The notes under the pieces are model-generated. The model saw nothing but the letters and a program-made list of their open reading frames with translations, had not been told where the DNA came from and did no database searches. Made by a program: the position numbers and the translations under genes. From NCBI RefSeq assembly GCF_000018105.1, contig NC_009933.1, positions 1 to 32,000 on the forward strand: DNA of 32,000 nt, given 5' to 3'. Positions 8,322 through 26,209 of the stretch are shown here, one piece after another. Numbering within the stretch: position 1 is the stretch's first letter; each line of letters begins with the position of its first letter. This DNA comes from Acaryochloris marina MBIC11017. GTDB taxonomy: Bacteria > Cyanobacteriota > Cyanobacteriia > Thermosynechococcales > Thermosynechococcaceae.

Positions 8322-9566
8322 GTGATGGCGAATGAGGAACAGCTTTCTTTGCTCAAGCAGGGGGTTGAAGCGTGGAATAGTTGGCGAGAGGAGAATCTTG
8401 ATGTTGAGATAGACCTCAGCAGTGCCGACCTCCGCAATGCCGACCTCCGCGATGCCGACCTCCGCGATGCCGACCTCTTCAATGCCGACCTCTTCAATGC
8501 CAGCCTCAGCAATGCCAGCCTCAGCGGTGCCGACCTCACCAATGCCAACCTCCGCGATGCCAGCCTCAGTAATGCCGACCTCAGCAAGGCCAACCTCAGA
8601 TTTGCCAGCCTCAGATATGCCGACCTCAGCAAGGCCAACCTCAGCAATGCCAGCCTCTATGAAGCCAAACTCTTTGGAGCCAACCTCAGCAATGCCGACC
8701 TCAGACTTAGCAAAGCAATAAGAACCAACTTCATGGACGCTGACTTATCAGGAACTTGCATTACAGACTGGCATATTATCCGTGGAACTAACTTTGAATG
8801 TGTTAAATGTAGCTACATTTACCTTGGTTATAATTTAGAACAAGAGAAATTCACTGATCGGCTACCAGTAAACCCTGATCAAGAATTCAAGCCAGGGGAA
8901 TTTGAAGAGTGGATCAAAGACAGTGCTGAAGCCCAACAAACTATTGATCTAACCTTTACTGAGGGTATTGACTGGCAAGCTTTCTCTCAATCCTTGCAAG
9001 GAGTTCGTCAGAAATATCCTGACAGTGGAGTTGGCCTACAAGCAATAGAAGAGAAGGGTACAGCATTTGTAATTCGGCTGAAGACATCACTAGATGCAGA
9101 CCAAGGTGTAATTAAATCATCGCAGAAAGAACTGTATGAGACACAGCTACAGCTCCGTGAAGCCCAAGGAGAAAATAGAGTTTTACGAGAAATGTCAGAA
9201 GTCCTCGAAAAACTGGCAAGTCGGCCAACAACAAATGTTGACTTCAATAGAGAAACACAAGGTTCTGATAAGTCAAATCTCCTCATGACTTTCTTGTCAT
9301 GGTTTCAGAATGGTCAAGCGATCATTGCGATCATTGCTTTGGTACTTGGAGTAGCATCAACCTATTTCATCCCCAAAATGTTTCCCAATGGTTTCCCACC
9401 TGTTAATTCTGATCCTCAACCGGAAGTGATCCAAAGCGCACCAAGTTCACCAAGAACTGAAATTGGGATTGGAAAGAGGATGGCTCAGCAGGTGCATCAA
9501 TTTCTACTAACTAGTGAACAGGCAGATCGTCACGTAAATGCTGAGTCCTTGAAGCTAAATCAGTAA
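8322..9566 (+). CDS. Pentapeptide-repeat protein with coiled-coil region and C-terminal transmembrane helix
   Basis: ~25 A(D/N)LxX pentapeptides (SADLRNADLRDADLRDADL...). TM segment AIIAIIALVLGVASTYFIP. ATG at 8325. Confidence 0.85.
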   Translation: MMANEEQLSLLKQGVEAWNSWREENLDVEIDLSSADLRNADLRDADLRDADLFNADLFNASLSNASLSGADLTNANLRDASLSNADLSKANLRFASLRYADLSKANLSNASLYEAKLFGANLSNADLRLSKAIRTNFMDADLSGTCITDWHIIRGTNFECVKCSYIYLGYNLEQEKFTDRLPVNPDQEFKPGEFEEWIKDSAEAQQTIDLTFTEGIDWQAFSQSLQGVRQKYPDSGVGLQAIEEKGTAFVIRLKTSLDADQGVIKSSQKELYETQLQLREAQGENRVLREMSEVLEKLASRPTTNVDFNRETQGSDKSNLLMTFLSWFQNGQAIIAIIALVLGVASTYFIPKMFPNGFPPVNSDPQPEVIQSAPSSPRTEIGIGKRMAQQVHQFLLTSEQADRHVNAESLKLNQ

Positions 9567-15133: not shown

Positions 15134-15628
15134 TCATCTCAGCCTGATCCTCGATCCAATACCAGCCCCCGGAACCTGCCCAGCGGCGAGCGTCTTCTCT
15201 TCTTTTAGCATCGTCACCGATAGACCCGCATTGCCATTCTCAAACTGCTCGGAGACTTCCCGCCAACCTAGCTCCCGGTAAAACCTTGCAGAGCTGACCC
15301 TAGCGTTAGACCAAATCGGCCTTGCTTGATTGGACTCTTGCAAATCCTCAAGCAAGTATCGGATCAGTCCTGTGCCAATGCCCTGATTTCTCCAGCCTGG
15401 AGCTGTCGCCATTGCTCTAAGTCGCCACGCAGGTTCTCCGTGCCAGGTTGAGGGAATGAGGGTAGCGCAGCAGATGATTTCTCCATGCTGGTGTATTGCC
15501 CCATAATGACGGGTTTCCTGGTCTTGGTCTTCTGCAAAGATGACCTCAGCGATAGGCAAACCTGGCCGTAAAACTTGGTGGCGAAGTTTGAGGATATGAT
15601 CTGCGGTCGTCCTGGTGAGGGTGATCAT
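15134..15628 (-). CDS. GNAT-family N-acetyltransferase (intact copy; carries protospacer-like 15494-15525)
   Basis: Motif A RLRAMATAPGWRNQGIGTGLIRYLLE; 164 aa. Confidence 0.85.
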   Translation of the reverse strand: MITLTRTTADHILKLRHQVLRPGLPIAEVIFAEDQDQETRHYGAIHQHGEIICCATLIPSTWHGEPAWRLRAMATAPGWRNQGIGTGLIRYLLEDLQESNQARPIWSNARVSSARFYRELGWREVSEQFENGNAGLSVTMLKEEKTLAAGQVPGAGIGSRIRLR

Positions 15629-15792: not shown

Positions 15793-15855
15793 TCAATCAC
15801 AAGACCTGAGAATTATAATGTTTGAGCAGCAATCTTCAATTGAGTGGAGTGTTTG

Positions 15856-16482
15856 ATGCAAAAAACACTAAGGATAATAGCTATACATTCGAGCATAGCA
15901 ATGGCTTTGATGATTCCGCCAAAATGCTTGGTTTCTTCTGCAGCAACTTTAACGACACTTGATCCATCTGATTTTTCTGGAGAACCCCAAATTACTTTTG
16001 ATGCTCTGCCTAATCAGACTTCACTGAATGGAAGGGTAATCAATGGGGTCAGATTTAGCTTTGGAATCGGAACAAGTCCAGGTACAGATGCTCCATTTCA
16101 AGGAGTGGGGAGTGTAGAGTATGGCTTTCAATTTAGTAGACAAAGACATATCACTTCTCCCTATGTTAATTTTGCAGGGCCTTTGATTTTGCAATTCCCC
16201 AAGAAATTAACGCAGTTTGGTTACGGCTTTGCGATAGGTACTAATAGCGATGTTATCCCTTCCCTTACAACTGTTGAGCTTTTTAAAGGGACAACATCTT
16301 TAGGATCTTTAAGTTTCGATGGGAGACGGGATGGACCAAATATCTTCGGAAGCACTAACGGAGGTTTTGCAGGAGTTGCAAGCGATATTCCTTTTGATAG
16401 AGCAAAAATTAAGATAAATGCTCTTTCTCCATATGCTGTAGATAATATTCGCTATGTTTCAGTACCTTTCAAAGGTTTGTGA
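15856..16482 (+). CDS. Secreted hypothetical protein (signal peptide)
   Basis: MQKTLRIIAIHSSIAMALMIPP... Ends ...AVDNIRYVSVPFKGL. ATG 15856 within the ORF that opens at GTG 15844. Confidence 0.6.
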   Translation: MQKTLRIIAIHSSIAMALMIPPKCLVSSAATLTTLDPSDFSGEPQITFDALPNQTSLNGRVINGVRFSFGIGTSPGTDAPFQGVGSVEYGFQFSRQRHITSPYVNFAGPLILQFPKKLTQFGYGFAIGTNSDVIPSLTTVELFKGTTSLGSLSFDGRRDGPNIFGSTNGGFAGVASDIPFDRAKIKINALSPYAVDNIRYVSVPFKGL

Positions 16483-16713
16483 ATAGAGTTTGAACAACTG
16501 GGTGTGCTGAAAGATAACGTTTCAGTTTTGGGGCAGCTTGGGTAATACTTTTCCTTTAATGTGAGTCTTTGAGAAGCATAAATAGGAAGAATTCTATTGA
16601 TAATATACGAACACCTACCTTGTTGGGTGGATCAATAATCCAGATTCAATGAATAGCTTTTTATAAAATTCAAAGAATCTGTTAGCTCATATTTACAGGG
16701 GGGAAATAAGGTT

Positions 16714-17382
16714 ATGATTTGGCGATCAAGATTGCTATTACTCACTTTTAGCAGTATTGTCTTAACTGGCAATATTCAGCTTCAATCAGTCAGAGCCGCC
16801 AACATTAAATATGACTTCACAGTAGATTTTCCACCATTACCTTTCCGACAGCCTTTGCAAGGCCAGAAAGGAGCTGGATTTCTTACCATAGATGATACTT
16901 CTCAGCCGATTTTCTCAGATACTAGGAGTGGTATTCCTCTTGATTTTTATGAAGTTGAGCAGCTAAATTTTAGTCTTCTAGGACAAACATTTACCAAGCA
17001 GGATGACATAGCAGCCAATAGACCATTACAACGCTTTCCACTTGTCGCGTTTCAAGGTGAACGACTTCAAGGTCTTGACTTTGCTGTAAACCGAAAAAGT
17101 CGAACAGGGCTTGGATTCATATTTCAAGTGGACACTTTAAGTTTGTCAGATGAATTTTTCTCACCCTCAGATGGAGATTTTACTGGTAATATCGGCGCTA
17201 TTGTAGGTCCTGGTTTTTCAAGGAGTATTGTTGCTGCTCAAGGTTCTGGACTATCACTTGGGCGCGTAAAATTTAGGCGAGTTCCTCTAGATGATGGTGC
17301 CGTAAGCATTGTTTTAAGTATCTTCCTAAGTTCCCTGATCGTTGTATATAGGCAACGTAAACAACAACAACCATTACCCTGA
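16714..17382 (+). CDS. Secreted protein with C-terminal TM anchor plus basic tail (PEP-CTERM-like sorting-signal shape)
   Basis: Signal peptide MIWRSRLLLLTFSSIVLTG. C-terminus VPLDDGAVSIVLSIFLSSLIVVYRQRKQQ. Purine-rich SD-like stretch upstream (GGGGGGAAATAAGG). Confidence 0.65.
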   Translation: MIWRSRLLLLTFSSIVLTGNIQLQSVRAANIKYDFTVDFPPLPFRQPLQGQKGAGFLTIDDTSQPIFSDTRSGIPLDFYEVEQLNFSLLGQTFTKQDDIAANRPLQRFPLVAFQGERLQGLDFAVNRKSRTGLGFIFQVDTLSLSDEFFSPSDGDFTGNIGAIVGPGFSRSIVAAQGSGLSLGRVKFRRVPLDDGAVSIVLSIFLSSLIVVYRQRKQQQPLP

Positions 17383-17507
17383 TACGCCATGCAACTTCCT
17401 CGTGCCAGGTCGAGGAAATGAGGGTGACGCAGCAAATGATTTCTCCCTGCTGGTTTAATCCCCCATAATGCCGGGTTTCATTGTCCTGGTCTTCTGCAAA
17501 GATGACC
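17377..17507 (-). pseudogene. GNAT acetyltransferase remnant (approx codons 28-72), truncated at 17507 by a transposon end
   Basis: Reads QVIFAEDQDNETRHYGGLNQQGEIICCVTLISSTWHEEVAWRIR versus the intact gene's EVIFAEDQDQETRHYGAIHQHGEIICCATLIPSTWHGEPAWRLR. DNA identity to 15416-15546 stops at 17507. Confidence 0.8.
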
Positions 17508-17635
17508 TGTCCATTATTTCTTTGTGTGCACAGCTTTAAGGAATTAGATGAACAATTTATGAATTTGCGTTGTTTCGATAATTAGCAGATAAAGAAAATA
17601 AAAATCTCCAGTTTTAAAGTTTTATATGCACAGCT
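17508..17635 (+). mobile_element. Tn7-like/CAST-like transposon end, copy 1 (terminus TGTCCATTATTTC)
   Basis: ~91% identical to 22079-22205. Begins exactly where GNAT homology stops. The 13-bp terminus has a perfect inverted copy at 22007-22019. Confidence 0.55.
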
Positions 17636-17673
17636 CCTTAATTTTTCATACCTAAATGAAAGGAACGTCAGCT

Positions 17674-17709
17674 CTTTCAACCCCTAGTACTTGTTGACAG
17701 CCATTGCAA
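17674..17709 (-). repeat. Solitary CRISPR-like repeat (type V-K-like 3' end)
   Basis: Minus strand reads TTGCAATGGCTGTCAACAAGTACTAGGGGTTGAAAG. It shares the GTTGCAATG... start and ...GGGTTGAAAG end with the repeats at 22252-22362. Confidence 0.45.
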
Positions 17710-17737
17710 AAATTACTGAAGTTAATCCAATCAATCC

Positions 17738-18037
17738 AAAAGAATCAGACTTTGACTTGGCCTTGAGGTTCTGGGGTTCCCCCTTGCTCGGGGGCAATTT
17801 AGTAGCTGCCACGACAGGTTTATCCTGTATTCTCAAACTAGACGCGGTGGCCTAGTTTAAGAACATTGCTCCCGGCATAAGGTGCGACCTTACCACCACA
17901 CTCAGACAAGTCCGAGTAGAAGCGGACAACTACTTGCATGTGAACACGAACATTTGTGAAACACATGGGCACTGGAAAGTAATGAAACTGGACCTTCATT
18001 TATCACAAATACTTTGATGCACCTGCGCGCGATAGTT
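17738..18037 (-). ncRNA. Cas12k-type tracrRNA homolog, apparently full length
   Basis: Minus strand holds colinear blocks resembling the ShCAST tracrRNA as I remember it: TAAATGAAGGTCCAGTTTCA, ACTTTCCAGTGCCC, GGTAAGGTCGCACC, and GTCGTGGCAGCTACTAAATTGCCCCCGAGCAAGGGGGAACCCC. AACCCC...CCTCAA is complementary to GGGTT/TTGAGG of the nearby repeats. Confidence 0.55.
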
Positions 18038-18126
18038 TTTATTCTACTCCTGTCGCTAAGACCTTCTCAGGCTATTCATTAAACGAAGTAAATCAAACTT
18101 TGAAAAAGACTTAACTCACCTGCCTA

Positions 18127-21100
18127 TCAACGATTTGATGCCTTTATTGCTTGTCGGCATACATCTAAATTATTTTGAACTGCGGCAGTATCGGGGTGTT
18201 CGTTGCCCAAGAGCTTCTGTGTCATCTCCAAGGCTTGTACATAGAGGGGTTCGGCTTCGCTGTACCGTCTTTGGTAGGCGTAGAGGTATGCCAAGTTATT
18301 AAGGCTTTGAGCGACATCGGGGTGTTTGTTGCCCAAGTGTTTCTGTCTCATCTCCAAGGCTTGTACATAGAGGGGTTCGGCTTCGCTGCACCGTCTTTGG
18401 CAGGCGTAGAGTCCTGCTAGGTTATTGAGGCTACTCGCGAGAAAAGGATGTTCGTTGCCCAAGAGCTTCTGGTTAATCTCTAGGGCTTGTTTGTAGAGGG
18501 GTTCCGCCTCCCTATAACGCCTTTGATTGGAATAGATTAATGCCAAGTTATTGAGGCTACTCGCGACATCAGGGTGTTCATCCCCAAATAGCTGCTGTCT
18601 CATCTCTAAGGCTTGTTTATGGAGGGGTTCCGCCTCCTCATAACGCCTTTGGTTTCTGTAAAGTTCTGCTAGGTTATTGAGGCTATTTGCTACATCGGAG
18701 TGCTCATGGCCCAGTAGCTTTAGTCTCATTTGTAGGGCTTGTTTATAGAGGGGTTCCGCCTCCTCATAACGCCCTTGGTCATCTAAAAGTCCAGCCAAAA
18801 CATTGAGACTTTGAGCGACATCGGGATGTTCATTCCCAAATAGCTTCTTTCTCATCTCTAAGGCTTGGATAAAGAGAGGTTCTGCCTCCGCATAACGTCC
18901 TTGGTTATCGTATAGTGTTGCCAGGTTATTGAGACTTTGAGCGACATCGGGGTGTTCATTCCCAAATAGCTTCTGTCTCATCTCTAAGGCTTGGATAAAG
19001 AGAGGTTCTGCCTCCTCATAACGCCCTTGGTTGTCGTAAAGGTTGGCCAGGCTATTGAGGCCTTGAGCGACATTGGGGTGTTCATTACACAATAATTTCT
19101 GGAATATTTTCAGTGCTTGAGTACAGAGGGGTTCTGCCTCCTTATACCGTCCTTGGTTGCAGTAGAGGTTTGCCAGGTTACTCAGGCTAGCAGCGACATC
19201 GGGATGTTCGTCACCCAATAGTTTATGGAATATTTCCAATGCTCGAGTATAGAGGGGTTCGGCATCCAAATACTGCTCTTGCAAGTAATAGAGAGCTGCT
19301 AAATTATTCAGACTCTTAGCGACATCGGGATGTTCATCACCCAATAGTCTTTGTTTCATTTCCAATGATTGGATAAAGAAGGTTTCAGCCTCTGCATAGC
19401 GTCTTTGATGGCCGTAGATTGTTGCCAGGTTACCAAGGCTTTTTGCGATATTGGGATGTTCATTGCCCAATAGCCTCTTGTACATATTTAGAGCTTGGGT
19501 ATTGAGAGATTCTGCCTCCTCATAACGTCCTTGGTTATCGTATAGTGTTGCCAGGTTATTGAGACTTTGAGCAATATCGGGATGTTCATTGCCCAATAGC
19601 CTCTTGTACATATTTAGAGCTTGGATATTGAGAGATTCTGCCTCCTCATAACGTCCTTGGTTATCGTATAGTGATGCCAGATTCGAGAGGCCAAGAGCGA
19701 AATCGGGGTGTTCGTTGCCCAAGAGCTTCTGATACATCTGCAACGCTTGCAAATAGAGAGGTTCTGCCTCCTTATAACGTCCCTGGTCTGTATAAAGGTT
19801 TGCCAGGTTATTGAGACTTTGAGCAATATCGGGATGTTCATTGCCTAATAGCCTCTTGTACATATTTAGAGCTTGGATATTGAGAGATTCTGCCTCCTCA
19901 TAACGTCCTTGATAGTAATAGAGGGCAGCCAGGTCATTAAGACTAGTAGCAGTATTTTTATGCTCACTACCAAATTTATGTTGACACTGTTTGAGACATC
20001 TTTGCCTCCAAGGCAATGCTAAATCATAATTACCTTGTCCTTCATAAAATCGACCGATACCGACATAAGGCCAAATCAATTCATCATCACTGAGATGGTC
20101 AATCCATTGTCTGATGAGTTCCTCGAGATGAGGAATGCTGCCTTGTATCTCAGCAATTACATCAATCGTTGATCTGCCATCAATCCTCTGAGCAATACCA
20201 ACCATTGCATTGCAATAAGCCGTTTTGAGGGATTCCCCCTTTTCAGTAAGCTCATCCAATTTGAGTCGAAAGAACTCCTGCACAATTTGATGAAGTTGAT
20301 AGGTGCCCTTTCCTATTCGCTTGAGAAGGTTCCGCTTCAATAACCCTTTATTTCTAGCCTTTACGATTTCCCTGACAGATGTCTCTGGCAAACAAGATTC
20401 AACATGCTTCCACGGGATAGGAGCTATAGAAAATATTCCTAACAAACAGGCTAATTCTTTCTCAAAATCCTTAAGTTTCTTCCAACTCAACTCCAATGCT
20501 GCAGCAACTCCAAGTTGGGCTGTCATGCCGTCTTCTCTCTCACATAAAGCTTCAGCATGTAGCCGCATTGATTCGAGTTCTTGGATTAAATCGTGGATGG
20601 TTAGATCTTGGTCGTTAGACAGGTATCGTCCTAATAGTTCCAGGCCTAATGGCAGATTACCCACCCAAGCACACAACGATTTAGCATCCTCTAGTTGAAT
20701 TTGAATTCGATCTTGTCCAACTAAGGATCCCAGTAGTTCTAACGCACTTTCATTATCGAGTTCCTCCAGGCAAAGAGAGCGGACAGACCGACCAAAATCA
20801 AGTCGGGTGGTGATCAGGGCTTTAAACCGTGGGTTCCATAGGGGAAGACAGGAGGCAACAAGCTCATACTCAACTACATCGTCAACAACGATTAAGACCT
20901 CCCCTTTGGGCCATCGTTGCCAAATGAAACTGACCTGGGCCTTTGCTTCGAGATCATCTGGGGGTTTCATTCCCAGATGGCTTTTAGAAAAATCAATGAT
21001 TTGAGTGGCGATTTCTTGATCTCGTGACCGTAGCCAACAAATCCCACCTGGGTAAATCTTCTGGCTTAAGGACCGTTGAGCATATTCCCAGGCCAGCTCA

Positions 21101-21288
21101 GTTTTCCCAATCCCTCCCATCCCTTCAAGAGCAGTGATGGCGATTCGCTGGTTACTTTGCAGTTGCTCATGCAGTTGGTTGATCTGGGAGTCTCGACCAA
21201 CGAAGGCAACAGCGCCACTTGGAGGGAGGTTATTTGGTGTATCAGTTGGGGGATGTAACTTTGTCCGGTCCCAGTCGGACGACTCTAG
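18127..21288 (-). CDS. NB-ARC (STAND) NTPase with ~15 KLC-type TPR repeats; frame open upstream to the in-frame TGA at 21289-21291
   Basis: ...NLPPSGAVAFVGRDSQINQLHEQLQSNQRIAITALEGMGGIGKTELA (P-loop). 42-aa TPR units GNEHPDVAQSLNNLA.LY..QGRYEEAEPL. The first ATG/GTG/TTG after the TGA (21120) falls inside the P-loop. Confidence 0.8.
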   Translation of the reverse strand, partial: LESSDWDRTKLHPPTDTPNNLPPSGAVAFVGRDSQINQLHEQLQSNQRIAITALEGMGGIGKTELAWEYAQRSLSQKIYPGGICWLRSRDQEIATQIIDFSKSHLGMKPPDDLEAKAQVSFIWQRWPKGEVLIVVDDVVEYELVASCLPLWNPRFKALITTRLDFGRSVRSLCLEELDNESALELLGSLVGQDRIQIQLEDAKSLCAWVGNLPLGLELLGRYLSNDQDLTIHDLIQELESMRLHAEALCEREDGMTAQLGVAAALELSWKKLKDFEKELACLLGIFSIAPIPWKHVESCLPETSVREIVKARNKGLLKRNLLKRIGKGTYQLHQIVQEFFRLKLDELTEKGESLKTAYCNAMVGIAQRIDGRSTIDVIAEIQGSIPHLEELIRQWIDHLSDDELIWPYVGIGRFYEGQGNYDLALPWRQRCLKQCQHKFGSEHKNTATSLNDLAALYYYQGRYEEAESLNIQALNMYKRLLGNEHPDIAQSLNNLANLYTDQGRYKEAEPLYLQALQMYQKLLGNEHPDFALGLSNLASLYDNQGRYEEAESLNIQALNMYKRLLGNEHPDIAQSLNNLATLYDNQGRYEEAESLNTQALNMYKRLLGNEHPNIAKSLGNLATIYGHQRRYAEAETFFIQSLEMKQRLLGDEHPDVAKSLNNLAALYYLQEQYLDAEPLYTRALEIFHKLLGDEHPDVAASLSNLANLYCNQGRYKEAEPLCTQALKIFQKLLCNEHPNVAQGLNSLANLYDNQGRYEEAEPLFIQALEMRQKLFGNEHPDVAQSLNNLATLYDNQGRYAEAEPLFIQALEMRKKLFGNEHPDVAQSLNVLAGLLDDQGRYEEAEPLYKQALQMRLKLLGHEHSDVANSLNNLAELYRNQRRYEEAEPLHKQALEMRQQLFGDEHPDVASSLNNLALIYSNQRRYREAEPLYKQALEINQKLLGNEHPFLASSLNNLAGLYACQRRCSEAEPLYVQALEMRQKHLGNKHPDVAQSLNNLAYLYAYQRRYSEAEPLYVQALEMTQKLLGNEHPDTAAVQNNLDVCRQAIKASNR

Positions 21289-21711
21289 TCAATTCTGAAT
21301 ATTGATAGTTTCTGCTTGGTTTACTACTCCACCAGAAATCTTATTTTGATAATTTGTCCCACCATAGTTATTTTGAACCTGGCTACTGTTGTCTTCTATG
21401 ACATGCAAATTGATTTCATGGGCTAACTGCTGAATCTCTTTAGCAAAGTCCTCAGACTCTAACATCTCCACATTCAAATATGAGATGACCGCATTCAAGG
21501 CTTCAGTATTGCCTGCATCTGCTTTTTGGAGAGCGGCTTCAGCTTTCTCTTTCCCTTTGAATTTTGACCATATTTTGGTCCGTAGTTGATCAATTAATGC
21601 ATAAGCTGATGTTGCAAACTTTTTCCCAGTTTCTGAACCAGCGGCTTCAATGGCTTTTTGAAAGGCCAATGAGACAATGGCTGCTGCTGTGAAAGTCAAT
21701 GGTTCAGTCAT
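21289..21711 (-). CDS. N-terminal helical domain plus Q/N/G-rich linker of the STAND protein, ended by an in-frame TGA
   Basis: MTEPLTFTAAAIVSLAFQKAIE...QVQNNYGGTNYQNKISGGVVNQAETINIQN*. Same reading frame as 18127..21288. ATG 21711 lies within the ORF that opens at TTG 21780. Confidence 0.7.
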   Translation of the reverse strand: MTEPLTFTAAAIVSLAFQKAIEAAGSETGKKFATSAYALIDQLRTKIWSKFKGKEKAEAALQKADAGNTEALNAVISYLNVEMLESEDFAKEIQQLAHEINLHVIEDNSSQVQNNYGGTNYQNKISGGVVNQAETINIQN

Positions 21712-21823
21712 AGCACTTAGAATAAAGGCATCCAATAGATTATCAGGTGATTTTCTAGGATTTACGCTCACCTTCAGCAAGTTTTGAGAATCAGTTGATC
21801 AATCGAGAATCGGCTGATGGGAA

Positions 21824-22019
21824 GAAATAGTGCAACTAATTCCTTAAAGAATTTATTTTTCTCTCAGAAATAGTGCATCCATCTCTTGAAAAATCATTCT
21901 TGAGTATCATTACCTATAAATCAGTAAATCACTTTCTGAATATAGTTTATAGCGTTTCAAAGTTGTGCAGCTATTTCTATAAATTGCTCATTCTTGTGCG
22001 TTTAGCGAAATAATGGACA
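21824..22019. mobile_element. Candidate opposite transposon end (terminus ...GAAATAATGGACA at 22019)
   Basis: GAAATAGTGCA-type sites at 21824 and 21867 (+) and 21965 (-). The terminal 13-mer at 22007-22019 is a perfect inverted copy of 17508-17520. CTAATTCCTTAAAG (21836-21849) is inverted relative to 17534-17547. Confidence 0.45.
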
Positions 22020-22078
22020 CTTTTCAAATTCATTAGTTGTTGTACAGTACATCGCTATTTGCACAGATGTACATATTT

Positions 22079-22205
22079 TGTCCATTATTTCTTTATTTGC
22101 ACAGCTTTAAGGAATTAGATGAACAATTAATGAATTTGCGCCGTTTCGTTAATTAGCAGATTAAGAAAATAAAAACCTCCAGTTTTAAAGTTTTAAACGC
22201 ACAAA
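22079..22205 (+). mobile_element. Tn7-like/CAST-like transposon end, copy 2
   Basis: TGTCCATTATTTC... with ~91% identity to 17508-17635. Confidence 0.55.
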
Positions 22206-22251
22206 AGCTCTTCAGAAAATTGAAGAAATCAAAAATTGGGAAGCTGACGTT

Positions 22252-22362
22252 CTTTTCAACCTTTACCAACCCTCAAATGTCATTGCAACCCAGGACCAGG
22301 AAACCCGGCATTATGGGGCATTACTTTCAACCCATACCAACCCTCAAATGTCATTACAACCC
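22252..22362 (-). CRISPR. Mini CRISPR array (repeat-spacer-repeat), type V-K-like repeats; spacer matches the GNAT gene
   Basis: Minus strand: GGGTTGTAATGACATTTGAGGGTTGGTATGGGTTGAAAG / TAATGCCCCATAATGCCGGGTTTCCTGGTCCT (32 nt, 22323-22292) / GGGTTGCAATGACATTTGAGGGTTGGTAAAGGTTGAAAAG. Confidence 0.55.
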
Positions 22363-22520
22363 ACCTTGAAATTAGCCTAGTCCTGGTAAGACTTTGAGCG
22401 ATTAAATTGCGGATCACAATCATATTGAGTGATCTTGGTAAAGAGGCATCCAAAAGCATTAGGGGCTATTTGCCCAAGTCCTTACTCATAGGGGGGGTTG
22501 AAGAATGCGCCAATCCATCT

Positions 22521-22635
22521 AAAGAAATTAGAATTTGATTTGGCCTTGAGGTTCTGGGGTTCCCCCTTGCTCGGGGGCAATTTAAGCGCTGCCACGACAG
22601 GTATTCCTGTATTCTCAAGCTAGTGCAAAAGCCTA
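22521..22635 (-). ncRNA. Cas12k-type tracrRNA homolog, 3' part only (5' part removed at the IS630 junction)
   Basis: ~85-90% identical to 17738-17856. Contains TTGCCCCCGAGCAAGGGGGAACCCCAGAACCTCAAGG on the minus strand. Confidence 0.5.
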
Positions 22636-22732
22636 GTCCTAGATTTTGAAGATAACCCATCAGTTATGCAAAATTGTACAGACATCAGATAGTTTCAGAG
22701 AAACCCTCTTGTTCAAGATCCTTTCTCTGCCA

Positions 22733-23230
22733 ATGCCAACTCCCAAAGCCACTCCTATTGAGCTATCACAGCAACAACACCATTGTTTGCTCCAAATCGT
22801 TCGACAAACCACCAATCCTTATCGCTTGGTGCGTCGAGCGAGCATCATCCTATCAGCCGCCTCAGGCAAAAGTAACACCCAGATTAGCCGTCAATGGCAA
22901 CTCGACCGCAACCAAGTTCGCTATTGGCGTCAGCGCTGGGTAGATAACCAAGAGCGTCTTGCCCTTTGTGAGCAAGTAGACGACAGCAAACCAGCATTGA
23001 ACCAGCAAGTGTTGGCGACCTTAACAGATGCCCCACGTCCAGGTGTCCCACCCACCTTTACCCCAGAGCAGGTGGTCCAAATTGTGGCCATTGCCTGTGA
23101 ATCTCCTCAGAACTCAGCCCGGCCTGTGAGTCAATGGACGCCTGAAGAGATTGCTGATGAAGCGATTAAACGCGGCATCGTCCCTCACCTGTCGGCCAGC
23201 AGTGTGAGACGTTTTTTGGGGAGAGGCTGA
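22733..23230 (+). CDS. IS630 transposase, N-terminal HTH part (orfA)
   Basis: MPTPKATPIELSQQQHHCLLQIVRQTTNPYRLVRRASIIL...; ATG 22733 within the ORF that opens at 22646. Confidence 0.8.
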   Translation: MPTPKATPIELSQQQHHCLLQIVRQTTNPYRLVRRASIILSAASGKSNTQISRQWQLDRNQVRYWRQRWVDNQERLALCEQVDDSKPALNQQVLATLTDAPRPGVPPTFTPEQVVQIVAIACESPQNSARPVSQWTPEEIADEAIKRGIVPHLSASSVRRFLGRG

Positions 23231-23300
23231 GCTGCAGCCTCATCGGAGTCGCTATTGGCTCAATGCTAACCCTGAGGACCCAGAAGCGTTCGAGGCGAAA

Positions 23301-23981
23301 GTGCGCCAGGTTTGCCAACTGTATGAATCAGCAGCTGAACTGGAAGCTCACCAGATTCACCTTGTTAGTACGGATGAAATGACTGGCATTCAGGCGCTTG
23401 AACGACTGCACCCAGACCAAGCTATGCAACCAGGTCAACCGCGTCGTTTGGAATTTGAATATGAGCGGCATGGTACCCTCAGTCTCATCGCCAACTGGCA
23501 TGTGGCTCTGGGAAAGGTGATTGCGCCTTCTATCGGACCCACGCGAAAAGAATTTGACTTTGCCAATCATATTGCCAAGACAGTTGAAACAGCACCGGAC
23601 GATGGGTGGGTTTTTCTGCTCGACCAGCTCAATACCCATCGATCTGCTTCCCTTGTGCGATGGGTCGCTGTCTGTTGCGGTATTGATTCAGATTTAGGCG
23701 TTAAGGGTCAATCTGGTATCCTTCAATCGATGGAAACTCGCACGGCCTTCTTGAGCGACCCCAGCCATCGGATCCGATTTGTTTATATCCCCAAACATAC
23801 CTCCTGGCTCAATCAGATTGAATGCTGGTTTAGTATTTTGGTGCGTCGATTGATTCGTCGAGGAAATTTCACCTCCACGGATGATTTGCAACAGCGCATC
23901 CTCGATTTTATTGAATATTTCAATCACACTATGGCCAAACCTTTCCAGTGGCAATTTAAGGGATTCACGCCGCATGGATAA
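23301..23981 (+). CDS. IS630 transposase, DDE part (orfB; frame open from 23208)
   Basis: The upstream in-frame sequence reads GEAELQPHRSRYWLNANPEDPEAFEAKV. DDE_3-type body (STDEMTGIQ..., LLDQLNTH, NQIECWFS). Needs a +1 shift near T6G4 at 23212-23221. Confidence 0.8.
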   Translation: MRQVCQLYESAAELEAHQIHLVSTDEMTGIQALERLHPDQAMQPGQPRRLEFEYERHGTLSLIANWHVALGKVIAPSIGPTRKEFDFANHIAKTVETAPDDGWVFLLDQLNTHRSASLVRWVAVCCGIDSDLGVKGQSGILQSMETRTAFLSDPSHRIRFVYIPKHTSWLNQIECWFSILVRRLIRRGNFTSTDDLQQRILDFIEYFNHTMAKPFQWQFKGFTPHG

Positions 23982-24011
23982 CTGATGAACTATTTACAGA
24001 TCTATGGACTA

Positions 24012-24462
24012 GGACGCGAGTAGAGTCAGTACGCTGCTGCCCTCTGGCTTTAACCAGTCCTTTGTTCTGACAGCATTGCAGCAATTTGTCTAGTAGTAGA
24101 TGCTCTAGTTCACCAGCCATAAGGCGGTCTCGAAATTCGCTCAGGACGCTGAAGTCAAAGCCTTCGTCAGTTAGATCCAGGCCTAGCAGATATTTCCAAT
24201 CAATGCGAGATCGTACTGCTTCAGCTGCTTGGCGGTCAGATAGGTTTTCCCGAAATTGAAGCACGGTTACCAAAGCCAGTCGCCATGGCGGTAGCCCTGG
24301 CTGACCAGTAACAGAAAACAGGGCTTGGAAGTCAGCATCGTCAAATACTGGGCCGATTTCATCTCGCAACGTCAGGTATGGATTGCCTTTGGGAAAAGCG
24401 GCTTTAGCGACGCGAACCGTTTCTGACGGCACTGGGTTAATGGACTGCGGACTCAGGGACAT
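24012..24462 (-). pseudogene. IS1182/IS5-like transposase N-terminal fragment, truncated by IS630
   Basis: DUF772-type N-terminus (...RIDWKYLLGLDLTDEGFDFSVLSEFRDRL...QQRTDSTRVL) ends at the IS630 right junction. Confidence 0.7.
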
Positions 24463-24620
24463 CGTTCATCGCCTCCAAGTATTGATACACCGCCTTTAGG
24501 CTAGCTCTGGTCCGATACTTTTGAGTTCGCCAACAGTATCCGACCGTTTTCTTTGCACTCTCGTTTTCATGGCATTGGAGCCTTGATTAGCATAAAGAAA
24601 CTCGTCTAAAATTCAAAACT

Positions 24621-24644
24621 AGATAAACCCTTTATGATTTATCT
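24621..24644. promoter_or_regulatory. Inverted repeat upstream of the recombinase gene (candidate recombination/operator site)
   Basis: AGATAAA-ccctttatga-TTTATCT, 26 nt before ATG 24670. Confidence 0.3.
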
Positions 24645-24669
24645 TTCTTAGCTTCCAGCAGGGGACGAT

Positions 24670-25296
24670 ATGCTGATTGGCTACGCACGAGTATCGAAGG
24701 TTGATGGCTCTCAGGTTCTCGATCTGCAGATGGATGCATTGCTTGAAGCCGGTGTGCCAGAAAATAGGATTTACAAGGACAGAGTTTCTGGCAAGACGGC
24801 TCGACGACCAGGGCTAAAGGCTTGTCTCAAGGCGCTGCAACCTGGCAATACGCTGGTGGTTTGGAAGTTAGACCGTTTGGGGCGAGATCTCAAGCATCTC
24901 GTCGATGTTGTTGGTGAGCTACGGCAACGGGAGGTAGGATTTAAGGTACTCGCAGGTGCTGGTGCAGAGATTGATACCACCACTGCCAATGGGCGCTTGT
25001 TCTTTGCGGTCTTTGCGGCGCTGGCAGAGTATGAACGAGAATTAATTGCTGAACGAACACGGGCTGGATTGAAGGCGGCACGAGCGAGAGGGCGGATGGG
25101 CGGACGACCGCGCAAAATGGATGTTGCTACGCTTCAGATGGCGATGAGTGCCATGAGTGACCCAAGAGCGTGTGCTAAGGAGATAGCTCAGAAGCTTGGG
25201 ATGACGACAGCGACGCTTTACACCTATGTCAACGGAGACGGTTCCGCAAAGGCCGCTGGTCTACGTTTGCTTGATAGGTCGCGAGAAGTCCAATAG
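24670..25296 (+). CDS. Serine recombinase (resolvase/invertase family)
   Basis: MLIGYARVSKVDGSQVLDLQ (catalytic Ser motif), VVWKLDRLGRD, ALAEYERELIAERTRAGL, and a C-terminal HTH. Confidence 0.9.
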   Translation: MLIGYARVSKVDGSQVLDLQMDALLEAGVPENRIYKDRVSGKTARRPGLKACLKALQPGNTLVVWKLDRLGRDLKHLVDVVGELRQREVGFKVLAGAGAEIDTTTANGRLFFAVFAALAEYERELIAERTRAGLKAARARGRMGGRPRKMDVATLQMAMSAMSDPRACAKEIAQKLGMTTATLYTYVNGDGSAKAAGLRLLDRSREVQ

Positions 25297-25348
25297 AGAG
25301 GCTTTTTAGCTCACCGTTGCCGACGAATGCCTTGCTGTTTCAACTGTT

Positions 25349-26209
25349 ATGGATAAACAGACGCCACTTTCAATATGGAATCAGCTAAACTCCCGGCAGC
25401 AGAAGTACTTGGAGCTGATTTATCAGGCTGACCAATCGGCTGAGCGGTTTGAAAAGATGAGTTGGAATAACGGTCGGCGTTCTCGACCAGCATCTGTCTG
25501 GCGATGGCTGTACTACGGCGATATCGATGATAGGCCCAGTCCTCTAAAGAGCCGATTGTTAAGAGCTGAGCTGGTTGACAACGGTACTGGCAGTACCCTA
25601 AATGCTTTAGAGCGTCGAACGTTAATTGAGTGTGATGGAACTGTCCCAGAGCTGTACATCAAGGTCACTCGCTTAGGCCGCAAGGCTGTCCGGACGGGAA
25701 CTAATGAGTCTGTTTTTAAAGCACCTAGAACGCCAAAAGGGATGCTTAGTTACAAAGCATGGCAGGCGATGGTCCTTGTCTTCAAAGCAGGGAAAGAAGG
25801 GGTCCAGCATGACGGATATAGCAAATATACCGAAGGCATCCACATGTATACCTGGAGACATTTGGAACAGCTAGCCCCTCCGCTAATACAGGGTTATAGT
25901 TGTTCGCGTTTCACAGCCTTCGGCTTCATTTATTACAGTCGCCATTACGAGCAGTATCGAGAGACTTACCCAGATATAGACACACCTGAGTCACGACTGA
26001 CGATAGATGACATCATTAACAAACTCAGAGCTTTCAGGATGCAGACACTTGTTCAACTGGTGCAGATGAAGCGAGGGGTAAAAGGGATCCAAGAAGCGGC
26101 TGATGAAATCGGTACACCTGTTAGTTTTGCTGCTCTCAGCCAGTTTGAGGACGGACAGACGATTAAGCTTGAACAACTGGAGAAGATAATTGACTGGCTA
26201 GTTCAATGA
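25349..26209 (+). CDS. Hypothetical protein with C-terminal HTH-like segment
   Basis: 286 aa; ...IQEAADEIGTPVSFAALSQFEDGQTIKLEQLEKI. Confidence 0.55.
   Translation: MDKQTPLSIWNQLNSRQQKYLELIYQADQSAERFEKMSWNNGRRSRPASVWRWLYYGDIDDRPSPLKSRLLRAELVDNGTGSTLNALERRTLIECDGTVPELYIKVTRLGRKAVRTGTNESVFKAPRTPKGMLSYKAWQAMVLVFKAGKEGVQHDGYSKYTEGIHMYTWRHLEQLAPPLIQGYSCSRFTAFGFIYYSRHYEQYRETYPDIDTPESRLTIDDIINKLRAFRMQTLVQLVQMKRGVKGIQEAADEIGTPVSFAALSQFEDGQTIKLEQLEKIIDWLVQ

Follow-up and report, generated by a model that had tools for sequence, protein, structure and literature searches.

The first 32,000 nucleotides of contig NC_009933.1 of Acaryochloris marina MBIC11017 (hereafter the window) contain, from 17508 to 22019, a 4512-bp segment with the ends of a Tn7-like transposon, a guide-RNA module and a STAND/NLR-like gene. 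An initial annotation of this segment, which we call element A, had described it as a non-autonomous element resembling the CRISPR-associated transposons (CASTs). Followed along the minus strand from 22019, element A consists of a right end (RE), an open reading frame (ORF) of 163 aa, an NB-ARC/TPR gene, a 14-nt match to cas12k, a promoter-like site, a gene for a trans-activating CRISPR RNA (tracrRNA), a CRISPR repeat with a spacer-like stretch, and a left end (LE). The interior had been described as only a repeat, a tracrRNA and a STAND gene; all of these are present, and the 163-aa ORF had been overlooked. The LE adjoins a fragment of a GNAT gene, and beyond the RE a short linker leads to copy B, a truncated CAST of full-length type. 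Elements A and B lie in tandem, with their LEs in the same direction. Coordinates are collected in Table 1.

Table 1. Features of element A, its target DNA, the linker and copy B (PAM, protospacer-adjacent motif; crRNA, CRISPR RNA)
Feature	Positions	Strand	Remarks
GNAT gene fragment, target DNA	17371-17507	-	~codons 27-71; cut at both sides
PAM GGTT	17452-17455	+	5'-GTN-type; directly 5' of protospacer; 52 nt to LE
Protospacer	17456-17489	+	31/34 match to copy B array spacer
Element A LE	17508-17632	+	CRISPR-side, target-proximal; terminus TGTCCATTATTTC; YGCACW sites at 17527 and 17627
Spacer-like stretch	17633-17674	-	First 17 nt AGCTGACGTTCCTTTCA
CRISPR repeat, single, diverged	17675-17712	-	TTGCAATGG...GGGGTTGAAAG; leader and rest of array missing
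tracrRNA gene	17727-18033	-	3' end undefined; homology to other loci extends to 17727
Promoter-like site	18041-18070	-	CTGAGA-18-TAGAAT; 5' of tracrRNA; conserved in S15 locus; consensus match only
cas12k 3'-end match, 14 nt	18110-18123	-	gcaggtgagttaag vs gcaggttgattag (L024 11995-12010); 3 nt past NLR stop
NB-ARC and TPR (STAND/NLR-like) frame	18127-21288	-	Pfam NB-ARC E 1e-13; TPR_10 E 3e-196, 14 matched stretches
163-aa ORF	21289-21780	-	No family match; accompanies NLR gene in every sister element
Element A RE, ~208 bp	21812-22019	-	Terminus ...GAAATAATGGACA; four inward YGCACW at +20, +51, +143, +186
Linker, 59 bp	22020-22078	.	Between element A RE and copy B LE; LE-like 26-mer and 12-mer
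Copy B LE (truncated full-length-type CAST)	22079-22203	+	Collinear with L013 1731-2494, 81-82%
Copy B homing crRNA	22236-22292	-	Repeat and 17-nt spacer GAACGTCAGCTTCCCAA; target tRNA-Gly(CCC)
Copy B sole array spacer, 34 nt	22290-22323	-	Directed at GNAT genes
Copy B second repeat, leader, tracrRNA 3' part	22324-22636	-	Cut by IS630-family element ~22637-24013

Ends of Element A

The 13-mer TGTCCATTATTTC has three exact copies, at 17508-17520 and 22079-22091 on the plus strand and, as its reverse complement, at 22007-22019. Two of them give element A the TGT...ACA inverted termini of a Tn7-like element (TGTCCATTATTTC at 17508 and GAAATAATGGACA ending at 22019), as first annotated. The third is the second left end that the initial annotation had placed 59 bp past the right terminus, and the resemblance there is not confined to 13 letters: 17508-17632 and 22079-22203 form a direct repeat with 92% identity across 125 nt. 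When up to two mismatches are allowed, shuffled sequences contain a mean of 1.0 match, and three matches are reached in 5 of 100 shuffles; the argument that the termini are more than chance therefore comes from homologues, in which the same termini are bordered by 5-bp duplications and the YGCACW motif keeps fixed positions, and not from the count of 13-mers.

The subterminal repeats reported earlier are also present, with GAAATAGTGCA at 21824 and 21867, an inverted TGCAGCTATTTC at ~21966, and TGCACAGCT at 17527 and 17627; the inverted CTTTAAGGAATTAG motif grows to 25 nt at 88% identity (17534-17558 versus 21825-21849). In a survey of five LEs and four REs, YGCACW (background 1.1 per kb, both strands) stands at +20 and ~+120 of each LE and at +20, +51, +143 and +186 of each RE, always pointing inward. 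These sites form several candidate transposase-binding repeats per end, arranged differently on the left and on the right, and an asymmetric multi-site layout of this kind is typical of Tn7-like ends (PMC11406308, section 2.6.1).

The LE of element A shares its terminus with the LE of a cas12k locus (L013; 89.6% identity) and is 95% identical to the LE of a plasmid-borne mini-element (L004). Its RE is 92% identical to that of L028, where homology stops at 22019, and 86% identical to that of L004. These comparisons show that the 13-mers truly terminate the members of a non-autonomous family with CAST-type ends, since homology to the GNAT gene breaks at 17507/17508, the L013 LE ends in the 13-mer, and the mini-element L018 has its target duplication outside the same 13-mers. 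The terminus thus recurs at element boundaries elsewhere, the full-length-type LE does not differ from it, and the pair does not look like an internal binding-site repeat, which were the three points on which the initial annotation had said its proposal would turn.

During this work TGTACAGT was tried as the true LE terminus and ruled out by the L018 duplication and by the terminus-to-terminus alignment with the LE of A. marina S15. Reading the CRISPR-side end as the 'right' end, which would imply the wrong insertion orientation, was ruled out because the homing target tRNA-Gly adjoins this end in L013, L024 and L032.

A Family of NLR-Carrying Mini-Elements

Sequence comparison places element A in a family of 2.9-4.5-kb NLR mini-elements on Acaryochloris plasmids that make 5-bp duplications. 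L018, from the same metagenome-assembled genome (MAG) as L013, is 2903 bp long and has the same 13-mer termini and the same pair of small ORF and NB-ARC/TPR gene, without guide RNAs; directly outside its 13-mers is a perfect ACGGG duplication. Deletion in silico of L018 together with one copy of the duplicate restores an 85-aa, GIY-YIG-like ORF, the match across the junction being near-threshold (21.7 bits against a cut-off of 22.6). A GGTT found 53 bp outside the L018 LE is no more than suggestive, no matching spacer being known. The L004 element, on plasmid pREC3 of A. marina MBIC10699, has TTTTT at both sides, and the L005 element, on an S15 plasmid and with an IS630 within it, has AAAAC at both sides. 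In these other mini-elements the NLR stop codon abuts LE position ~+125 directly, with no tracrRNA or crRNA between.

L005-L007 make up a subfamily with the LE TGAAC(G/A)TTAAAGCGC and the RE TGTCTATTAAAGCGC, similar to the S15 chromosomal LE TGTACATTAAAGAAT. LE and RE termini covary between subfamilies, one having the TGTCCATTATTTC type and the other the TGnnnnTTAAAG type. In three plasmids a related mini-element occupies one location, the mobF-parM interval (L005 5847-10285, L006 6143-8901, L007 from 6932). Among PLSDB plasmids none has an unoccupied mobF-parM site, and a strain with an empty site was not found. L005, the one member checked for it, has no GTN PAM 52-65 bp from its LE.

NLR cassettes also occur with an RE and without an LE, on S15 plasmid unnamed15 (L028) and on the Moss Beach plasmid pMB04 (L029). 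Both cassettes are flanked by ~112-bp direct repeats of a GNAT 3' end (L028 3809-3920 and 7317-7430; L029 2846-2965 and 6238-6350). On pREC1 (L003) a NACHT gene is closely followed by a GNAT gene, and GNAT genes recur beside NLR cassettes.

Guide-RNA Module, Cargo and Missing Genes

From the 14-nt cas12k match onward, the tracrRNA region of element A and the DNA that follows cas12k in the S15 chromosome and in L013 are collinear. The tracrRNA is 86.5% identical over 363 nt to that of the S15 chromosomal CAST, 85-88% to that of L013 and 89% to that of copy B. Its conserved helices are preserved, the long-range stem and the CCCCC/GGGGG hairpin among them, and compensatory changes across four homologues are seen at 9 of the 58 predicted pairs; energies of the tracrRNA-repeat duplex are not better than with shuffled repeats. 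The tracrRNA thus looks structurally intact, and its gene may still be expressed.

The crRNA has fared differently. Alignment with full-length loci shows that the middle portion of the repeat has diverged. The stretch AGCTGACGTTCCTTTCA, read in reverse complement, is identical to the canonical junction of L013 and L024, in which the repeat end TGAAAG runs into GAACGTCAGCT, the opening 11 nt of the tRNA-Gly homing spacer. By this comparison, a short part of the homing crRNA has been inverted, or turned into a palindrome, in element A. Neither the window nor any of the Acaryochloris loci fetched contains a PAM-flanked match to the resulting spacer, and the crRNA is most likely a non-functional relic. 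Of the guide-RNA genes that the initial annotation attributed to element A, the tracrRNA therefore stands, whereas the crRNA is scrambled and the spacer that explains the position of the element sits in copy B. On the most plausible reading, the guide module is a relic of how this copy arose, when an NLR cassette became joined to the part of a full CAST that extends from the 3' end of cas12k as far as the LE.

The cargo gene has an NB-ARC domain followed by a repeat sensor domain, the arrangement of STAND/NLR proteins, which bears out its earlier description as NLR-like. The 163-aa ORF and the NLR gene share one frame, divided by a single TGA, and the first ATG, GTG or TTG of the NLR frame is at 21120, within the P-loop GMGGIGKT. 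The NLR cargo may be a pseudogene, or may depend on read-through or an unusual start; the L018 NLR has ~110 aa of additional N-terminal region. A PADLOC search matched only a generic TPR model, with no match to a curated defence-system protein and none for the small ORF, and exact look-ups of the window NLR protein and the 163-aa ORF gave no match.

As claimed at the outset, element A lacks transposition genes. Neither 17508-22019 nor the rest of the window encodes cas12k, tnsB, tnsC or tniQ, as judged by a Pfam run on the ORFs of element A and on flanking ORFs within 15844-26209, by the translations of the remaining window ORFs, and by tblastn with the L013 Cas12k, which found no further cas12k remnant in the window, copy B included. 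With no ORF for TnsB, TnsC or TniQ, element A is non-autonomous. No Acaryochloris plasmid in PLSDB encodes Cas12k or an S15-type TnsB, and the chromosomal Acaryochloris loci examined do encode Cas12k, a distribution that fits mobilisation in trans.

Target DNA and Copy B

The 138-bp GNAT fragment shares 83% identity with the intact copy of the gene at 15134-15628 (blastn, 17371-17508 versus 15409-15546; tblastn E 3e-20) and 90% with the GNAT gene of MBIC10699 pREC1, and its homology terminates precisely where the LE begins. The only array spacer of copy B, TAATGCCCCATAATGCCGGGTTTCCTGGTCCTGG, agrees with the fragment in 31 of its 34 nt and has a single mismatch among the first 24; no match is expected in shuffles. 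The spacer matches the intact GNAT gene equally well (31/34 at 15494-15527), with GGTG as the PAM there. None of the remaining array spacers of L013 and L024 has a match in any fetched locus.

The CRISPR-side end of element A therefore lies downstream of a GTN PAM and of a protospacer matched by a crRNA, at a distance of 52 bp, as in the type V-K CASTs. Since strand, PAM, side and approximate distance all fit Cas12k-guided insertion, the LE junction at 17508 looks RNA-guided. That the spacer was simply acquired from neighbouring DNA was rejected as the main explanation, as the PAM, strand and LE distance would all need to coincide.

The homing spacer of copy B, GAACGTCAGCTTCCCAA, is also present in L013 and L024, where it matches the tRNA-Gly beside their LEs. 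The linker between A and B contains an LE-like 26-mer, TGTACAGTACATCGCTATTTGCACAG, at 22043-22068, a 12-mer, TTGTTGTACAGT, identical to the DNA abutting the LE at the tRNA-Gly in L013, and an inverted copy of an LE-internal 17-mer, and the linker may be what earlier insertions left behind. The tandem arrangement of A and B is also what would be expected if one target had been hit repeatedly.

Full-Length Relatives and Insertion Distance

L013, from the MAG of Acaryochloris sp. IP29b_bin.176, contains cas12k, a tracrRNA, a 5-repeat array, the 17-nt homing spacer and an LE, which ends ...GAAATAATGGACA 12 bp from tRNA-Gly(CCC). Its Cas12k ORF has as closest database relative a protein named Cas12k, at 67% identity. 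The tRNA is matched by the homing spacer, beside a GGTA PAM that lies 65 bp from the LE. The S15 chromosomal locus L024 is organised in the same way; a 3' portion of tnsB (Mu-transposase C-terminal domain) stands at the far side, with defence-like cargo between, and PAM and LE are again 65 bp apart. A third, more distant CAST (L032) lies at tRNA-Gly(TCC), with a spacing of 62 bp. As the tRNA-Gly stands at the guide-RNA-side end in all of L013, L024 and L032, the CRISPR-side end is target-proximal, as it is at the GNAT protospacer of the window. PAM-to-LE spacing is 52-53 bp at the two mini-element sites (17452-17508; L018 5171-5230) versus 65 bp at the homing sites (L013 2493-2560; L024 12957-13025).

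In L024 (795-2539) the ORF after tnsB is only 122 aa long and is followed by a 442-aa transposase-like ORF, so this CAST is possibly defective itself. The same Cas12k occurs in L030 and L031, which have type I restriction-modification cargo; the CASTs in L030 and L032 look intact. The Cas12k-bearing contigs P0002, P0003, P0004, P0005, P0044 and P0045 come from samples other than that of the window.

Origin of Element A

We consider it probable that element A arose from an Acaryochloris type V-K CAST by replacement of the interior, which left it non-autonomous, and that it was mobilised in trans and joined to its present left flank by a replicative, guided event. Its CAST-like character, suspected from the start, follows from a 125-bp LE ~90% identical to that of L013, a tracrRNA homologue and the 14-nt match to the cas12k 3' end. 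The derivative would have kept the LE, the RE and the module normally found between cas12k and the LE (promoter, tracrRNA and one decayed crRNA), with the small ORF and the NB-ARC/TPR gene taking the place of tnsB-tnsC-tniQ-cargo-cas12k. From the directly observed anatomy, homologies and termini, the duplications of the sister elements and the geometry of spacer, PAM and LE, we infer trans-mobilisation, a replicative route and crRNA decay. In this scheme TnsB, TnsC, TniQ and Cas12k of a full-length CAST would recognise the ends of element A in trans; a crRNA from the copy B array (spacer 22290-22323) would pair with a plasmid-borne GNAT gene beside its GGTT PAM; and the LE would be joined 52 bp downstream of that PAM. 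The event may have been intramolecular and replicative, with an adjacent deletion, or may have formed a cointegrate that was left unresolved, mis-resolved or resolved elsewhere, the RE staying on its old flank of linker and copy B. The mini-elements in general probably hitch-hike on full-length relatives.

Several observations weigh against this account. Element A is flanked by TGACC on the left and CTTTT on the right, without a 5-bp target duplication, and the other half of the GNAT gene is absent at 22020 and throughout the window, so that only the LE junction is demonstrably new. Both facts had been noted before and attributed to rearrangement. That step is not needed: type V-K CASTs have no TnsA, transpose replicatively and form cointegrates (PMC11406308 section 3.4; PMC9798831), and this mode of transposition could account for both the missing duplication and the missing second GNAT half. 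The GNAT fragment is also truncated at its left edge, 17371, at the end of the ORF 16714-17382, and there further rearrangement did occur. No second copy of the guide-bearing version was found: scans of metagenomes with the LE core and with the tracrRNA core gave no match, and of 16 matches to the terminus pattern in a genome collection the only relevant ones were L013 and L018, from one Acaryochloris MAG, the others being apparent chance matches in unrelated taxa. The Logan contigs that contain the locus have the same sequence as the window and are not independent copies; the locus is present in the reads SRR29694081 and SRR4784084. The same termini were sought in full-length relatives; the LE of the cas12k locus L013 has them, and an RE from a tnsB-bearing relative was not obtained, protein searches with the S15 TnsB C-terminus giving no match and hence no full-length CAST RE of the element A subfamily to compare. 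Movement of 17508-22019 as a single unit and a helper CAST in the source genome are presumed in this account. The spacing also differs by ~12-13 bp, with 52 bp at element A against 65 bp at the tRNA-Gly(CCC) homing sites. This gap is about one helical turn of TnsC, assuming 2 bp per protomer and six protomers per turn.

These points bear on the alternatives as well. Element A might instead be a local mosaic, in which a full CAST inserted its LE in the GNAT gene and recombination with an NLR mini-element already in place later replaced or removed the part from the cas12k 3' end to the RE, so that the LE at 17508 and the RE at 22019 never transposed together. The junction 3 nt past the NLR stop, onto the 14-nt cas12k match, is unique to element A, the other mini-elements joining the NLR stop directly to LE ~+125; the lack of a target duplication and of a second copy also speaks for this reading, and the half-elements L028 and L029 show that NLR cassettes do recombine. 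We nevertheless regard a mosaic as unlikely. The LE and RE are complete, of the same subfamily and in correct inverted orientation, with motif positions intact, and such a unit could in principle still be mobilised; the missing duplication is expected from replicative transposition with no further steps; and the LE is nearer to that of mini-element L004 (95%) than to those of copy B (92%) or L013 (90%). It is far less probable still that the 13-mers are internal transposase-binding repeats of larger ends and that the pair at 17508 and 22019 delimits nothing. The extra LE-like 26-mer 36 bp outside the copy B 13-mer, and TGTACAGT upstream of the 13-mer in L013, could be taken that way, yet the L018 duplication and the restored ORF locate the cut precisely at the 13-mers, similarity to GNAT is lost at 17507/17508, A, B, L013, L018 and L004 are homologous from the 13-mer onward, and the S15 LE aligns terminus to terminus.

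The other question is whether the guide module does anything. If element A had its own functional tracrRNA and crRNA, these would programme the target choice of a helper Cas12k. A promoter-like site and all conserved helices speak for a working tracrRNA, and the repeat retains its 3' GGGGTTGAAAG, a segment that presumably pairs with the tracrRNA, by analogy with ShCAST. The crRNA lies ~15-50 nt downstream of the tracrRNA (whose 3' end is undefined) on the same strand, an arrangement that resembles a natural single-guide RNA. Against this, the spacer is a palindromic scramble of the homing spacer with no PAM-flanked target in the loci searched, the repeat middle has diverged, the leader and array are lost, and the spacer that explains the insertion lies outside element A, in copy B. 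A self-guiding hitch-hiker is for these reasons improbable. We give equally little credence to the bolder proposal that element A is a working parasite of CRISPR-guided transposons, whose tracrRNA, perhaps within a single-guide-like tracr-crRNA transcript, would load a helper Cas12k, borrow TnsB, TnsC and TniQ, and spread an NLR-type gene between plasmids. If it were true, element A would be a guide-RNA-bearing hitch-hiker, and the spacing of 52-53 versus 65 bp would mark a distinct assembly state, with one TnsC turn fewer.

Plasmid Context

By gene content and PLSDB matches the window resembles an Acaryochloris-type plasmid; the PLSDB plasmids that match its DNA are exclusively from Acaryochloris. 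It encodes a relaxase-like ORF of 1319 aa (called by eye), a resolvase and several insertion sequences. Pfam confirmed the IS630 and a DUF772 transposase fragment, and the calls of ParM, IS21 and ISL3 come from translations alone. No Rfam family reached its gathering score anywhere in the window, and a tRNA scan was likewise empty.

Between the relaxase-like and ParM-like genes is a 414-aa ORF (8322-9566), apparently rich in pentapeptide repeats as judged by eye; in related plasmids an NLR mini-element occupies its place. The IS630-family element that interrupts the copy B tracrRNA (~22637-24013) has the ends CCTAGTCC and GGACTAGG, and is abutted by the DUF772 transposase fragment (23965-24462), with the resolvase gene (24670-25296) next. 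Two ORFs without a Pfam match (15844-16482 and 16714-17382) are situated between the intact GNAT gene and the GNAT fragment. A look-up of the second matched only short contigs identical to the window, which end inside the repeated LE and tracrRNA sequences.

Comparison with Known Systems

The locus indicates that natural non-autonomous derivatives of type V-K CASTs exist, of which limited searches found no description in the literature. It also supplies a compact natural donor, with an LE of ~140 bp and an RE of ~210 bp, and a defined spacer-target pair for tests of Acaryochloris CASTs.

Much of what is seen here resembles known type V-K CASTs. Element A has the Tn7-like TGT...ACA ends, with a tracrRNA and a repeat ending GTTGAAAG beside one of them; copy B and the full-length relatives carry a 17-nt homing spacer against a tRNA gene; the PAM is of GTN type, with the CRISPR-side end nearest the target and a few tens of bp downstream; and the replicative mechanism is able to leave no simple duplication. 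Unlike these CASTs, element A has an NLR-like cassette instead of cas12k, tnsB, tnsC and tniQ, its crRNA is scrambled, and it stands beside the protospacer of an array spacer. According to reviews, integrated CASTs are normally not adjacent to protospacers of their own array spacers (PMC11656645), which makes the GNAT/LE junction unusual. Natural insertions in such a position are said to be very rare, and this junction offers direct natural evidence for the proposed pathway in which array spacers send the element into plasmids. The spacing of 52 bp likewise departs both from ShCAST, which inserts 60-66 bp downstream of the PAM (PMC9798831), and from the 65 bp of the family's own homing sites, raising the question of what sets insertion distance, 52-53 bp in one case and 65 bp in the other.

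Partly degraded Tn7-like elements of a cyanobacterial array-targeting family have been proposed to be mobilised in trans (PMC11837452). Like these elements, and like laboratory mini-Tn7 and mini-CAST donors, element A has intact cis-acting ends where the transposition genes are missing or broken, and multiple copies or target duplications imply movement by the proteins of another element. The natural examples described there retain damaged tns genes, whereas in element A the tns genes are wholly absent; different, too, are the recurrent cargo of a small ORF and an NB-ARC/TPR gene, the plasmid family, and the one copy with guide-RNA genes. The mini-elements L018, L004 and L005-L007 share the LE/RE architecture and the cargo pair with element A, the PLSDB copies L004-L007 being plasmid-borne. 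Unlike element A, they lack tracrRNA and crRNA, and L018, L004 and L005 have the 5-bp duplications.

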